From the NCBI RefSeq assembly GCF_003334315.1, contig NZ_QOWR01000014.1: a stretch of 64,000 nt of DNA; one strand, written 5' to 3'. This document shows positions 11,296 through 45,638 of this stretch, in pieces. The stretch's first letter is position 1. Every line of letters begins with the position of its first letter. The notes under the pieces were generated by a model. It was not told the DNA's origin. It was given only the letters and a program-made list of their open reading frames with translations, and did not search any database. The position numbers and the translations under genes are program-made. Source of the DNA: Escherichia coli (GTDB lineage: Bacteria > Pseudomonadota > Gammaproteobacteria > Enterobacterales > Enterobacteriaceae).

Positions 11296-11500
<205 letters not shown>

Positions 11501-11504
11501 TGAC

Positions 11505-11894
11505 CTACAGACGTTTAAGCTTCGCAATTACCGGTTCATTGGCTGGCGGAAAATCATCGGCATTAAGACCGACCAGCGACATCCACTCACCGGGTTGCCC
11601 TTCTTTACCCCACGGCTCCCCTTCCCAGCGTTCGACCAGCCAAAACCACAGTGTTATATGCCTGTCCGGGAATTCATATTCCAGTTTTTCAAATAGCGAA
11701 AAATGTTGGGGGGTAATCCCGACTTCTTCCTGAAGTTCACGCACCACCGCCTGTTCCGGCGTTTCACCCATTTCAATTTTACCGCCGGGAAACTCCAGTT
11801 TATTCGCCATGTGCGCATCTGCTGCGCGACGCGTTATAAAGATTTCATTGTTCTCGTTGCGAATAATACCTACCGCAATTTGCAGCTTTTTCAT
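11505..11894 (-). CDS. mutT: 8-oxo-dGTP diphosphatase MutT (Nudix), 129 aa
   Basis: MKKLQIAVGIIRNENNEIFITRRAADAHMANKLEFPGGKIEMGETPEQAVVRELQEEVG... with Nudix box. Confidence 0.95.
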   Translation of the reverse strand: MKKLQIAVGIIRNENNEIFITRRAADAHMANKLEFPGGKIEMGETPEQAVVRELQEEVGITPQHFSLFEKLEYEFPDRHITLWFWLVERWEGEPWGKEGQPGEWMSLVGLNADDFPPANEPVIAKLKRL

Positions 11895-11908: not shown

Positions 11909-11936
11909 AAAAAAGGCGCAGAATCCTGCGCCTTTT
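11909..11936 (-). terminator. Rho-independent terminator downstream of secA
   Basis: Minus strand reads ggcgcag-gatt-ctgcgcc followed by a U-run, 20 nt after the secA stop. Confidence 0.7.
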
Positions 11937-11953
11937 ACTTCAACAGTTAGCTT

Positions 11954-14659
11954 TTATTGCAGGCGGCCATGGCACTGCTTGTATTTTTTACCAGAACCGC
12001 ACGGGCAAGGATCGTTACGTCCTACTTTGCGCTCTCCGGTTTGCGCCGCCAGTGCAGCTGCGGCTGCAGAGTCGTCATCCTGATGGCTAAGCTGCTGCAT
12101 TTGCGCTAAACGCTCGGCTTCCATACGACGCTGTTGTTCCAGCTCCTCAACCTCTTCAGGCATACGTACCTGAACTTTGCTCAGCGTACTGATAACTTCA
12201 TATTTCAACGACTCCAGCATCGCTGCAAACATGGAGAACGATTCACGTTTGTATTCCTGCTTCGGATCTTTCTGTGCGTAGCCACGCAGGTGGATACCCT
12301 GACGCAGATAGTCCATCGCTGCCAGGTGCTCTTTCCACAGGGAGTCAAGCGTTTGCAGCATGACGCCTTTCTCGAAGTGACGCATCATCTCAGCACCAAC
12401 CACTTCTTCTTTACGCTGATACACTTCGATGGACTGCGCCAGAATGCGCTCACGCAGCGTCTCTTCATGCAGTTCTGGTTCTTTATCCAGCCACTCGGCA
12501 ATTGGCAAATCGAGGTCGAAATCGTTCTTCAGACGTTCCTGCAGCCCCGGAATATCCCACATTTCTTCCAGCGACTGTGGTGGAATGTAGGCATCAATGG
12601 TCGCTTTGAACACATCTTCACGAATGCTGTTAATGGTTTCGCTCACATCGCTGACATCCAACAGTTCGTTACGCTGGGAGTAAATGGCGCGACGCTGATC
12701 GTTAGCCACGTCATCATATTCCAGCAGTTGCTTACGAATGTCGAAGTTACGGCTTTCAACTTTACGCTGGGCGTTGGCAATCGCTTTAGTCACCCACGGG
12801 TGTTCAATGGCTTCGCCTGGCTTCATACCCAGTTTACGCATCATGCCGGATACTCGGTCGGAAGCAAAAATACGCATCAGCGCATCTTCCATCGACAGGT
12901 AGAAACGGGAAGAACCAGCATCCCCCTGACGACCAGAACGACCGCGCAACTGGTTATCGATACGACGGGATTCGTGACGCTCGGTACCGATGATATGCAG
13001 GCCACCTGCTTCCAGTACCGCATCGTGACGTACCTGCCAGTCGGCTTTAATTTTTTCAATTTGCTCTGCGGTCGGATTTTCCAGCGCGGCAACTTCTGCC
13101 TGCCAGCTACCACCGAGCACAATATCTGTACCACGACCCGCCATATTGGTCGCGATAGTCACCGCAGCCGGATAACCTGCCTGAGCAACAATCGCCGCTT
13201 CGTTGGCGTGGAATTTGGCGTTCAGGACGTTGTGCTTAATACCGGCTTTGGTCAGTTCGTTTGACACCAGCTCCGATTTTTCGATGGAGATAGTACCCAC
13301 CAGCACCGGCTGGCCTTTCGCAGTACGTTCTTTGATATCTTCAATGATCGCCTGAATTTTTTCCGCTTCAGTCATGTAGACCAGGTCCGGCAGATCTTTA
13401 CGAATCATTGGACGGTTGGTCGGAACAACGACGGTATCCAGCTTGTAGATTGAGCTAAATTCGAAAGCTTCGGTATCAGCAGTACCGGTCATCCCCGCCA
13501 GTTTTTCATACAGACGGAAGTAGTTCTGGAAGGTGATCGAAGCCAGCGTTTGGTTTTCGTTCTGGATCTGCACACCTTCTTTCGCTTCCACAGCCTGGTG
13601 CAGACCATCGGACCAGCGACGGCCCTGCATGGTACGACCGGTGTGTTCGTCAACGATGATAACTTCACCATCTTTAACGATGTAGTCGACGTCACGGGTA
13701 AACAGCGCATGAGCGCGCAGCGCCGCCGTTACGTGGTGCATCAGCATGATGTTGGCCGGAGAGTACAGAGACTCCCCTTCATCCATGATGCCCTCTTTCA
13801 CCAGCAGTTCTTCAATCAGCACCAGACCACGTTCGGTCAGGTTCACCTGGCGAGATTTTTCGTCCACCGAGAAGTGGCCTTCGCCCTGGAAGGTTTCGGA
13901 GTCTTCTTTTTCCTGACGGATCAGGTGCGGAATAATTTTATTCACGCGTTTATACATTTCCGAGCTGTCTTCTGCCGGGCCGGAAATGATCAGCGGTGTA
14001 CGCGCTTCATCGATCAGGATGGAGTCCACTTCGTCCACCAGCGCATAGTGCAGTTTACGCTGTACACGTTCTTCAGGGCTGAACGCCATGTTGTCGCGCA
14101 GGTAGTCAAAGCCGTATTCGTTGTTCGTACCGTAAGTGATGTCAGCTGCGTAAGCTTCGCGCTTTGCCGGTGCTGGCATGCCCGGCAGGTTGATACCGAC
14201 AGTCAGGCCAAGGAATTCAAACAGCGGACGGTTGTTTTCGGCGTCACGTTGCGCCAGGTAGTCGTTGACGGTAACTACGTGCACGCCTTTACCGGTTAGT
14301 GCGTTCAGGTAAGCAGGCAGCGTTGCGGTCAGGGTTTTTCCTTCACCGGTACGCATTTCGGCGATGCAGCGTTCGTTAAGAACCATACCGCCGAGTAACT
14401 GAACGTCGAAGTGACGCATACCAAAGACGCGCTTACTTGCCTCACGTACCACGGCGAAAGCTTCCGGGATCAGATTTTCCAGCACTTCGCCTTTTTCCAG
14501 ACGTGCACGAAACTCTGCGGTTTTCCCTTTCAGTTCTTCGTCGGAGAGTTTTTCCATCTCCGGTTCCATGGCATTGATGATGTTGACCACTTTGCGCATC
14601 CGGCGCAGGGTGCGATCGTTACGACTACCGAAAACTTTAGTTAACAATTTGATTAGCAT
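11954..14659 (-). CDS. secA: Preprotein translocase ATPase SecA, 901 aa
   Basis: Full-length [50 protein letters not shown]...; C-terminal zinc-binding [14 protein letters not shown]. Confidence 0.97.
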
Positions 14660-16481: not shown

Positions 16482-17633
16482 TTAATCAGCTTGCTTACGC
16501 AGGAATGCTGGGATATCCAGATAATCCGGCTCTTTCGCAGTTTGCGGCGCATTGTCATTCACGACTTTAGCAACCGGCTTCTGCTCCTGGGTCAGCGGAG
16601 CCATCCCATGCTGCTGGTAGCGATCCATCACTGGCTGCTGAACCTGCTTATTGGTCACCAGAGTGATTTCAGGACGTTTGTCCATGCCGATACCTGTCGC
16701 AACAACGGTTACGCGCAGCTCGTCATTCATATCCGGGTCAAGAGAAGTACCGATAACCACAGTCGCGTTGTCGGAAGCAAATGCACGGATGGTGTTACCT
16801 ACCGTTTCGAACTCATCCAGACGCAGGTCGAAGCCCGCCGTGATGTTAACCAGCACGCCGCGCGCGCCAGACAGGTCGATATCTTCCAGCAGCGGAGAAG
16901 AGATAGCCATTTCAGCAGCTTCTTCCGCACGGTCTTCACCGCTCGCCACGCCAGAACCCATCATTGCGTAGCCCATCTCAGACATTACGGTGCGTACGTC
17001 TGCAAAGTCCACGTTCATCAAACCCGGACGAGTAATCAGTTCAGCGATACCTTGCACAGCGCCTTTCAGTACATCGTTCGCTGCGCCAAACGCATCCAGC
17101 AGGGAGATACCGCGGCCCAGAACTTTCAGCAGTTTGTCGTTCGGGATAGTGATCAGAGAGTCCACATGCTTGGACAGTTCAGTGATCCCCTGCTCCGCGA
17201 ATGCCATACGCTTCTTGCCTTCAAAGTTGAAAGGCTTAGTGACGACAGCAACGGTCAGGATACCCAAATCTTTTGCCACTTCAGCGACGACTGGTGCTGC
17301 ACCTGTACCGGTACCACCACCCATACCCGCAGCAATAAAGACCATGTCTGCACCTTCCAGCGCCGCACGCAATGCATCGCGATCCTCATCAGCCGCATTG
17401 CGGCCAACTTCTGGATTAGCGCCAGCGCCCAGTCCTTTGGTGATACCGCTACCGATTTGAATCGTCTGTCCAACCGCTGTTTTACGCAGCGCTTGTGCAT
17501 CGGTATTTACCGCGAAGAATTCAACACCTTCAATGCGCTCGCGCACCATGTGTTCAACAGCATTACCGCCGCCGCCGCCGACGCCGATGACTTTAATCAC
17601 CGCGTCATTGGTAAGTTCCATTGGTTCAAACAT
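16482..17633 (-). CDS. ftsZ: Cell-division tubulin homologue FtsZ, 383 aa
   Basis: [30 protein letters not shown]... with the GGGTGTG tubulin signature. Confidence 0.97.
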
Positions 17634-17693
17634 AGTTTCTCTCCGATTTGTGCCTGTCGCCTGAGGCCGTAATCATCGTCGGCCTCATAAAAA

Positions 17694-18956
17694 TTAAAAC
17701 TCTTTTCGCAGCCAACTATTGAGTCGCTTGATCCACGAGCCAACTGATGCTGTAACACGTTTTTCTACTTCAGCTTCACCGTTAAGATGTGACTCTTTCC
17801 CATAGTGAAGCAATCCCACCGCCGTCGAATAATACGGCTCCTGAGCATAATCCGTTAAACCGGTAATGTTCAGCGGCGCGCCGATACGCACTTGCGTATG
17901 AAACACGCGCTGAGCACAGGCTGCAAGACCTTCGATCTGCGCTGCGCCACCGGTTAATACAATGCCTGCCGCCAGGTGATGTTTAACCCCTTGTTGGCGA
18001 AGCTTTTCCTGCAACTGCAATATCTCTTCGTTGACCAGGTTGAGCAGCTCGGTATAGCGCGGCTCGATCACCTCTGCCAGTGTCTGACGTTGCAGACTCC
18101 GTGGCGGACGACCACCTACGCTCGGCACTTCCACGCTCTCATCTTTTCCAACGATGGAACCCAGCGCACAACCGTGGCGAACTTTAATCGCTTCGGCGTC
18201 GCTTGGCGGCGTGCCAAAGGCGTAAGCGATATCACTGGTCACGACATTGCCAGCATAAGGAATTACCTTAGTGTGGCGCAATGCCCCACCGGTATAAACG
18301 GCGATATCCATTGTACCACCACCGATATCGACGACGCAGACACCCAGTTCACGTTCATCTTCCGTCAATACCGAATAACTTGATGCCAGTCCGGCAAATA
18401 TCAGTTGGTCAACTTTCAGCCCACAACGTTCAACCGCTTTGACGATGTTTTTCGCCATATCGTTGTGACATGTGATCAGGTGCACTTTTGCCTGCATCCG
18501 CACGCCCGAAAGTCCTACCGGATTCTTGATCCCTTCCTGATAGTCAATCGCATACTCTTGCGGGATCACATGCAGCACACGATGCTCATCGCGCACACGC
18601 ACCGATTTCGCGGTATGGACGACGTTTTCCACATCTTCTTGCGTTACTTCTTCTTCAGAAATAGGCACCATACCAATTTCATTCTGGCAGCTGATATGCT
18701 TACCAGAAAGCGCCAGATATACCGAAGAGATCTGACAATCTGCCATCAATTCTGCCTGGTCAATGGCGCGCTGTACGCACTTGACCACGGATTCGAGGTC
18801 GTTCACCCCGCCTTTATCCATACCACGCGACGGGCAGCTGCCCACGCCAATGATATTGACCATACCGTCGGGCAGAACTTCCCCTACTAAAGCGGCAACC
18901 TTCGCGGTACCAATCTCCAGTCCTACTACCAGTTTTCTGTCCGTCGCCTTGATCAT
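17694..18956 (-). CDS. ftsA: Cell-division protein FtsA (actin-like ATPase), 420 aa
   Basis: Full-length [42 protein letters not shown]... Confidence 0.96.
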
Positions 18957-44090: not shown

Positions 44091-44097
44091 TCCCCTT

Positions 44098-44120
44098 GCC
44101 CGGTCAAATGACCGGGCTTT
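44098..44120 (+). terminator. Stem-loop after leuD (leu operon terminator), between convergent leuD and setA
   Basis: gcccgg-tcaaatga-ccgggc followed by ttt. Confidence 0.6.
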
Positions 44121-44138
44121 CCGCTATCGTCCACGTCA

Positions 44139-45317
44139 TCAAACGTCTTTAACCTTTGCGGTTAAAAATAATGCGATAACAGAAATAACCGCAATTACCC
44201 AGTAGACAGCAAAGTGCCCCCAACTTTGTGCAATTGCTCCCTGAATAACGCCAGCCAGAATTACCCCGGTAGAAATACTGTTAGTAAATAAGGTGGTAGC
44301 TGCCCCCGCTCTTCCAGGCATTAAATCCTGAAACCATAGCATCCCAATACCCGCAACAATGCCGATAAATACAGCGTTAAAAAGTTGCAGCGTCATCAAC
44401 GCCAGACGGCTATGAAATAAAATCAATCCGGTGTAAAACAGTACTCCTGCCGCCACTGCTATGACCATCATTCGCCGCTTACCATAACGTTTGACATAGT
44501 AGCCAGCCAGAATCATTGCTGGTATTTCCAGACCAGCTGCCGTCCCCATCAGGAAACCCGCCAGTTTGTCTGGCAATCCTAACTCGCTACTGATCCACAA
44601 CGGCATATCAATAATGTACATGGTGTTGCAGGTCCACATTAACGTCGAGGCGACAAATAACATCCGTACGTTACTATCCTGCCAGCCACCTTGCATTGAT
44701 AAAGCATTTTCCGACGGCAGTTCTACCCGCGCCACAGACGGAAGCATAAATGCAATCAATACCAGACTGAGTGTGAATATCCCGGCGGCAATCGAAAACA
44801 TCACCGTAAAGCCGTAATTCAACGCCAGCATAAAGGCCAACGGTGGACCGATAACCCATGCCAGAGAAAGCTGCGCACGCATCACCGAGCTAAACATCAC
44901 CACTTCTCGCGCCGAGTTATCCGCATATTCCCGCGCCAGAGCAAATAACTGTGGCATTGCCGTATTGGCCAGAGATGCCAGAAGCACACCACAGGTGATA
45001 AGCGTCAGATAATGACGATTAAATGCAAACAATAGCGCATTGCCGATAGCCATCAAACAGCAAAATATAATCAGTTTTCGCCGATCGCCCTGACTGTCAG
45101 AACGTTTTGCCAACCAGAGGCTTACGCCGATCCCAGCAATAGCATTCACCGTATAAAAGAGTCCGATCCAGAAAGGTTGCGCGCCAACCTCACGACTCAG
45201 GTATAAGCTCAATGTAGGAGCCTGTAGCGCCCCGGCCACCCCCATCATAAAAGCGACCAGCATAAATGCCGCGTAAACACCGTTCATACGGCGAGCCATC
45301 GTCATTATCCAGATCAT
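44139..45317 (-). CDS. setA: Sugar efflux transporter SetA (MFS), 392 aa
   Basis: Full-length ORF MIWIMTMARRMNGVYAAFMLVAFMMGVAGALQAPTLSLYLSREVG...; lies immediately downstream of sgrS on the same strand. Confidence 0.94.
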   Translation of the reverse strand: MIWIMTMARRMNGVYAAFMLVAFMMGVAGALQAPTLSLYLSREVGAQPFWIGLFYTVNAIAGIGVSLWLAKRSDSQGDRRKLIIFCCLMAIGNALLFAFNRHYLTLITCGVLLASLANTAMPQLFALAREYADNSAREVVMFSSVMRAQLSLAWVIGPPLAFMLALNYGFTVMFSIAAGIFTLSLVLIAFMLPSVARVELPSENALSMQGGWQDSNVRMLFVASTLMWTCNTMYIIDMPLWISSELGLPDKLAGFLMGTAAGLEIPAMILAGYYVKRYGKRRMMVIAVAAGVLFYTGLILFHSRLALMTLQLFNAVFIGIVAGIGMLWFQDLMPGRAGAATTLFTNSISTGVILAGVIQGAIAQSWGHFAVYWVIAVISVIALFLTAKVKDV

Positions 45318-45344
45318 ACGTTCCCTTTTTAGCGCGGCGAGAAT

Positions 45345-45571
45345 AAAAAAAACCAGCAGGTATAATCTGCTGGCGGGTGATTTTACACCAATACTCAGTC
45401 ACACATGATGCAGGCAAGTCAACTTTCAGAATTGCGGTCATCCCACTGCATCAGTCCTTCAAGCATGGTTAATCGTTGTGGGACGCTTAACCAACGCAAC
45501 CAGCACAACTTCGCTGTCGCGGTAAAATAGTGCTGATAAAACTGACGCATGGGGCACCCCCTTGCTTCATC
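45345..45571 (-). ncRNA. sgrS: Small RNA SgrS (glucose-phosphate stress sRNA), about 227 nt
   Basis: Minus strand reads GATGAAGCAAGGGGGTGCCCCATGCGTCAGTTTTATCAG ... CCAGCAGATTATACCTGCTGGTTTTTTTT, matching SgrS as I recall it, including the 3' terminator hairpin with poly-U and the internal sgrT ORF. Confidence 0.9.
45419..45550 (-). CDS. sgrT: SgrT, 43-aa peptide encoded within SgrS
   Basis: MRQFYQHYFTATAKLCWLRWLSVPQRLTMLEGLMQWDDRNSES read from the ATG at 45548-45550. Confidence 0.85.
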   Translation of the reverse strand: MRQFYQHYFTATAKLCWLRWLSVPQRLTMLEGLMQWDDRNSES

Positions 45572-45638
45572 GTTAGGAATTATTGACTTAATATAGGGAA
45601 AATAAAATTGCTGTCTTTTGCACAGGAGTTCCCCTTTT

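Follow-up and report, generated by a model that had tools for sequence, protein, structure and literature searches.

The 64,000-nucleotide stretch of Escherichia coli DNA analysed here (the window) carries the sgrS/sgrT locus, and this copy is almost certainly the canonical E. coli glucose-phosphate stress module. The locus itself is well known and belongs to the textbook knowledge on sugar stress in E. coli. A sequence-only reading of this DNA had described a compact module consisting of a regulator, a base-pairing RNA, a small peptide and an efflux pump, and all four elements are found in the window. Their coordinates, and those of the other RNA elements discussed below, are collected in Table 1.

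Table 1. Features of the window considered in this work.
Feature	Position	Strand	Description
sgrR	45639..47294	plus	551-aa transcription factor
sgrR-sgrS divergent control region	45572..45638		67 bp; sgrS promoter; SgrR binding site according to published work
SgrS small RNA	45345..45571	minus	227 nt; 5' end 45571, 3' end 45345
GC-rich inverted repeat GGGGGTGCCCC	45551..45561	minus	SgrS nt 11-21; abuts the sgrT AUG and overlaps the ribosome-binding site
sgrT coding sequence	45419..45550	minus	43 codons and stop; SgrS nt 22-153
Base-pairing (seed) region	45384..45405	minus	SgrS nt 167-188, UGUGUGACUGAGUAUUGGUGUA
Intrinsic terminator	45345..45374	minus	8-bp stem GCCAGCAG/CUGCUGGU, 7-nt loop, eight U
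setA	44139..45317	minus	392-aa MFS sugar efflux transporter; same strand as SgrS
naRNA4 (CssrE)	11312..11389	minus	Rfam
naRNA4 (CssrE)	11429..11505	minus	Rfam
STnc40	11909..11978	minus	Rfam, 84 bits; secA 3' end (stop 11956..11954) and secA-mutT spacer
RF02797 'Plasmid-encoded Shigella sRNA A' (PssrA)	17625..17714	minus	Rfam, 105.5 bits
Leucine operon leader RF00512	39216..39365	plus	Rfam, 145.8 bits; ahead of leuA
TPP riboswitch	47328..47427	plus	Rfam, 66.1 bits; between sgrR and thiB; sroA small RNA in MG1655
naRNA4 (CssrE)	56178..56243	plus	Rfam

A scan of the whole window with Rfam places the SgrS family (RF00534) at 45345..45571 on the minus strand. The match has a score of 228.8 bits against a gathering threshold of 37 and an E-value of 2.7e-64, and it covers model positions 1-232 of 232 without truncation. 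The covariance-model search, which the sequence-only reading had itself proposed as a check, confirms thus a full-length SgrS far above the threshold, and the coordinates coincide exactly with those given there, where the strand was not named. The minimum free energy (MFE) of the RNA is −79.2 kcal/mol, which is better than that of 200 of 200 dinucleotide shuffles (z −3.43). Compared to sgrS of K-12 MG1655 (b4577, 77367..77593), the 227 nt of the window are identical, with no mismatch. The published layout of this RNA has sgrT at nt 22-153, the pairing region at nt 167-187 and an Hfq-binding 3' end (PMC12310071, review).

We now consider the base pairing with ptsG, for which a region near 45380..45420 had been suggested. 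In short-window duplex calculations, SgrS nt 167-188 (UGUGUGACUGAGUAUUGGUGUA) pair with positions −29..−8 of ptsG (AGCACCCAUACUCAGGAGCACU) with an energy of −27.8 kcal/mol, where the ptsG leader is the MG1655 copy and not the strain's own sequence, since ptsG lies outside the window. The paired ptsG segment spans the Shine-Dalgarno sequence, and the SgrS segment is unpaired in the centroid structure. Shuffled SgrS segments average −12.7 kcal/mol against ptsG, with −26.4 kcal/mol as the best value, and none of 2000 reaches the energy of the native segment. An unrestricted RNAduplex calculation with the full SgrS and the ptsG leader was also considered, but it yields one giant artificial duplex that 314 of 500 shuffles equal, and is thus uninformative.

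The pairing region sits in a block, TCATGTGTGACTGAGTATTGGTGT, that is invariant in a cross-genus alignment of 11 sequences; as the search pattern used to collect the aligned loci was itself derived from the pairing core, this invariance is partly forced, and the free observations are the flanking TCAT, GAC and T at the N positions. The Rfam consensus, too, shows the pairing region as the most conserved part of SgrS, and the same has been described independently of the present alignment (PMC2760817). The suggested location is hence supported: the pairing found here falls inside the interval, is complementary to ptsG and belongs to an invariant block.

At the 3' end of the RNA, the terminator scan finds a stem at 45374..45352 with five G-C pairs and eight U directly following it, in agreement with the earlier claim that the terminator is present. 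The stem is paired in both the MFE structure and the Rfam consensus, and it is kept in 11 of 11 homologues, with one compensatory change from G-C to A-U. With its long U tail, the terminator is a predicted Hfq-binding module.

At the 5' end, the gap that had been noted between SgrS and the divergent sgrR is indeed 67 bp, as SgrS starts at 45571 and the sgrR ATG is at 45639. This control region is 100% identical to that of MG1655, and the divergent E. coli allele discussed below matches it at 66 of 67 positions. By our own reading, an AATAAT at 45584..45579 (minus strand) is located at −13..−8 relative to the start of SgrS and is not accompanied by a good −35 element; this putative −10 element would fit an activator-dependent sgrS promoter. 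On the plus strand there is a promoter-like site at 45382..45409, but such sites are about as common in shuffled sequence (two found, 0.8 expected). Two antisense open reading frames on that strand, of 31 aa (45377..45472) and 41 aa (45405..45530), were rejected, as nothing supports either of them.

The sgrT reading frame starts with the ATG at 45550 and ends with the stop codon at 45421..45419. Its translation over 45550..45419 (minus strand) is MRQFYQHYFTATAKLCWLRWLSVPQRLTMLEGLMQWDDRNSES followed by the stop, unbroken, so the 43-codon frame is intact as had been claimed. The 43-aa peptide is identical to that of MG1655, and the frame is placed as sgrT (b4662) is there, in the 5' part of SgrS and upstream of the pairing region. 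It matches the Pfam family PF15894 'Inhibitor of glucose uptake transporter SgrT' with an E-value of 3.5e-13 and 49.5 bits (residues 3-37 against model positions 1-36 of 46), and among the NCBIfam models none matched. A start-codon mutation of sgrT has been described for the O157-type allele (PMC2760817); it is absent from the window. In the six-frame list of open reading frames, sgrT is visible solely as the tail of a 99-aa frame with a TTG start (45419..45718). The sequence-only reading had called this frame spurious, and rightly so, because it starts upstream of the transcript 5' end and crosses the promoter, its first 56 codons lying 5' of the SgrS start.

The flanking genes had been named as sgrR and setA, and both names hold. 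SgrR has 1126.8 bits against the NCBIfam equivalog NF010149 'HTH-type transcriptional regulator SgrR' (cut-off 476), with residues 1-550 aligned to profile positions 1-551 of 552. SetA matches TIGR00899, sugar efflux transporter (SET family), with 600.4 bits (cut-off 522.3), the SetB equivalog gives 448.7 bits and stays under its cut-off of 693, and the gene is named SetA in records with 99-100% identical DNA. The contribution of SetA to the stress response is described as unclear (PMC4021124, PMC10305011), and the idea that the stress-inducing analogue alpha-methylglucoside is exported has been tested and found no support (PMC4021124).

The order and orientation of the genes (thiB, the TPP riboswitch (sroA), sgrR, sgrS/sgrT, setA and leuD) are common to the window and MG1655, with the window being oriented as the reverse complement of the MG1655 region. 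Over MG1655 positions 74500-80000 there are 49 mismatches, none of which is in the SgrS RNA: 36 are in thiB, eight in setA, two in sroA/TPP, and one each in sgrR, leuD and the sroA-sgrR spacer. Judging from these mismatches, the window is an ordinary non-K-12 E. coli chromosome. With a 25-kb query, the best match is strain Z1323PEC0010, at 100%. It can be seen that the divergence from MG1655 is uneven, with the 36 mismatches of thiB falling within 984 bp (47458..48441), whereas sgrR has a single one over 1656 bp and sgrS is free of them. This pattern is suggestive of recombination with a boundary close to where sgrR and thiB meet.

The locus was also compared across genera by searching species-representative genomes with a plain DNA pattern based on the pairing core, which found 107 stretches. 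Rfam SgrS is above the gathering threshold in 16 of the 19 enterobacterial loci chosen, and an sgrT-like frame with the motif RQFY..YF.AT....WL......QRL.ML.ELMQW is present in 14 of these 16 homologues. The comparison with SgrT orthologues that the sequence-only reading had called for is therefore favourable, both in the Pfam match and in this common motif. In the 11-sequence alignment, the helix that contains the sgrT AUG is largely preserved. Of the 53 predicted pairs, nine have compensatory changes. sgrR adjoins SgrS in every other-genus locus whose DNA extends that far. setA comes after sgrS in ten other-genus loci, the arrangement being found in Citrobacter, Salmonella, Enterobacter, Pluralibacter, Superficieibacter, Siccibacter, Atlantibacter and Raoultella. 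E. albertii and E. whittamii differ in that they have sgrS and its terminator but no setA, with leuD directly next.

Two side observations were made in these loci. Insertions of ca 100-180 nt are found in the interval between the pairing core and the terminator in Klebsiella pneumoniae (L072 2072..2482), Raoultella (L066 351..682) and Enterobacter JUb54 (L082 763..1095), yielding RNAs of 332-411 nt. They fit a published remark on the size divergence of SgrS homologues. In addition, Rfam matches to the sok antitoxin (hok/sok) occur in three sgrS loci outside Escherichia, just past the setA 3' end in two of them (L070 185..332 and L022 6760..6911) and ca 11 kb from setA in the third (L005 14536..14688).

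Within E. coli, two haplotypes of the locus can be distinguished. A 361-bp query finds the locus in 5400 of 5426 complete genomes, at a single place in each. At least 95% identity to the query is seen in 3242 genomes (at least 99% in 3214 of these), and 2158 genomes are 90-95% identical, the match ending at the SgrS 3' end. setA DNA, which with its spacers occupies 44091..45344 in the window, is present in 3241 of the 5426 genomes, almost the same number as have the K-12-type sgrS, and about 40% of the genomes have an sgrS allele that is ca 91% identical and lacks setA. In strain K56-43-un (L002 3316..3350), which represents the 90-95% class, leuD is directly after sgrS, and SgrS is 89% identical to that of the window. 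The sgrR gene of this strain (L002 1484..3022) is annotated with 1539 bp and has a 117-nt gap relative to that of the window, which is probably a strain-specific in-frame deletion.

The window is of the K-12 type. The CFT073/O157-type allele, also found in E. albertii and E. whittamii, is ca 89-91% identical to the window SgrS and has in common with it the length of the RNA, the adjacency of sgrR, the pairing core CATCATGTGTGACTGAGTATTGGTGT, an intact 43-codon sgrT and the terminator design. The differences cluster between SgrT residue 32 and the 3' end, such that SgrT ends with ...EELMQWEGSHSDY; in addition, GGAGG precedes the AUG instead of the GGGGG of the K-12 type, and no setA follows sgrS, leuD being directly next. 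The difference between the two alleles, at 88% identity, was already published in 2009 (PMC2760817). The near-perfect linkage between the K-12-type sgrS and the presence of setA (3242 vs 3241 of 5426) is an addition to it.

Since setA follows sgrS in Salmonella, Citrobacter, Enterobacter and others, this arrangement looks ancestral, and the form without setA looks like an old Escherichia haplotype. A recent foreign origin of the setA haplotype was considered and rejected: SetA shares 86-88% identity with its counterparts in Salmonella and Citrobacter, and SgrR is similar, at 84-86%. These values fit vertical descent or an old polymorphism, and not a recent transfer. The Escherichia alleles without setA have GGAGGTGCCCC or GGAGGTGTCCC before the sgrT AUG (L002 3095..3105; alignment columns 27-38), compared to GGGGGTGCCCC in the window. 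As both are a better Shine-Dalgarno match and form a weaker hairpin, more SgrT may be made from these alleles.

Function is assigned to the window locus because its RNA and control region are 100% identical to those studied in K-12, and because of the literature (PMC4021124). In the published model, SgrR senses sugar-phosphate stress and activates sgrS, SgrS acts by base pairing to repress ptsG and manXYZ and to activate yigL, SgrT acts as an inhibitor of the PtsG protein, and SgrR induces setA within the sgrS-sgrT-setA operon (PMC4021124, PMC10305011; further sources on the mechanism of SgrS and SgrT are PMC2760817, PMC2760806 and PMC12310071). It is important to point out that our own results concern the identities of the parts, the intact reading frame, the ptsG complementarity, the terminator and the conserved layout, while induction by SgrR, Hfq dependence, SgrT-PtsG binding and setA co-transcription are taken from the literature.

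By analogy with K-12, the accumulation of sugar phosphates would lead SgrR to activate the divergent sgrS promoter, and the resulting 227-nt RNA would act as an Hfq-dependent base-pairing RNA. Pairing of SgrS nt 167-188 with the ribosome-binding region of ptsG would then block translation and lead to decay of the message, and thus to less glucose transporter; other published targets, e.g. manXYZ and yigL, would be paired as well. SgrS would double as the mRNA for the 43-residue SgrT, which would inhibit PtsG protein that is already present, and read-through of the SgrS terminator would allow transcription of setA, the sugar efflux pump.

The alternative that requires most consideration is that the window allele acts essentially by base pairing only, with sgrT being an intact but weakly translated or near-silent passenger, occluded by the hairpin and the surrounding helix. 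The inverted repeat GGGGGTGCCCC is present at SgrS nt 11-21, and both the MFE structure and the Rfam consensus place the AUG (nt 22-24) within a long helix. In K-12, this hairpin is reported to occlude the ribosome-binding site and to inhibit sgrT translation, resulting in a low SgrT output (PMC2760806), and with the native K-12 allele SgrT production was found to be very low and sgrT alone failed to rescue growth (PMC2760806, PMC4021124). Since the window allele has the same hairpin, an intact sgrT need not mean a well-expressed one. However, other genera have retained the frame and its motif, which points to selection acting on the peptide. That SgrT is made and inhibits PtsG is taken from the literature, in which ectopically expressed K-12 SgrT rescues cells and has been reported to bind PtsG (PMC2760806, PMC12310071). 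We regard a purely base-pairing role as doubtful, although deserving of some weight, and it is in any case a matter of degree and does not give the locus another identity. A chance reading frame within a non-coding RNA, on the other hand, is an option that is already refuted and to which we assign practically no probability. The frame is short, lies in a structured region and has no NCBIfam match, but the Pfam match to SgrT and the experimentally demonstrated function (PMC2760806) speak against it, as does the fact that 14 of 16 homologues, although their nucleotide sequences have diverged, have a frame at this position in which the motif is conserved.

Another option is that the 227-nt stretch is mainly a long 5' leader of the setA mRNA and no independent RNA. 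The distance from the SgrS 3' end to the setA ATG at 45317 is only 27 nt, a search for promoter-like sites on the minus strand from 45571 to 45317 (SgrS start to setA ATG) found none, and sgrS-sgrT-setA has been described as one SgrR-controlled operon (PMC10305011). However, a strong intrinsic terminator, with its eight U, lies ahead of setA, and about 40% of E. coli as well as E. albertii and E. whittamii keep sgrS and its terminator without setA. The RNA therefore stands alone, and the two transcripts can coexist. We consider this scenario highly improbable. The reading of the locus as the canonical stress module, with its RNA and its peptide, is thus retained, and none of the results speaks against it.

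Some of the other RNA elements in the window deserve a comment. The RF02797 match takes in the ftsA 3' end (stop 17696..17694), the start codon of ftsZ (17633) and the spacer between the two genes, and it is chromosomal; the plasmid-related name of the family is for this reason misleading here. The two naRNA4 matches on the minus strand are adjacent to each other, just downstream of mutT, and we take this family to correspond to REP-type repeats.

As to annotation, the sequence-only reading had stated that a protein-only annotation would miss the module entirely. This is correct for the RNA, as RefSeq/PGAP records with identical DNA have no sgrS RNA feature under the match, but not for the peptide, since sgrT is annotated there as a coding sequence, together with sgrR and setA. 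The curated MG1655 record annotates both sgrS (as ncRNA) and sgrT. The value of the finding is confined to annotation: where routine PGAP lists the sgrT coding sequence alone, the scan correctly identified the gene of a dual-function RNA. A transcript that base-pairs and also encodes a small protein is likewise known from RNAIII/Hld, SR1/SR1P, Spot 42/SpfP and AzuCR (PMC12310071); their sequences and targets are unrelated to those of SgrS, and they provide context and no common membership.

Work on the RNA, the peptide, the regulator, the targets and the adjacent pump goes back to 2004-2011, and the RNA in the window is identical to the studied one, so that no new biology is involved in its identification. 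For the species as a whole, the two old haplotypes might give the phylogroups a different balance between RNA- and peptide-based control of glucose uptake, a tentative proposal that we consider rather unlikely at present.
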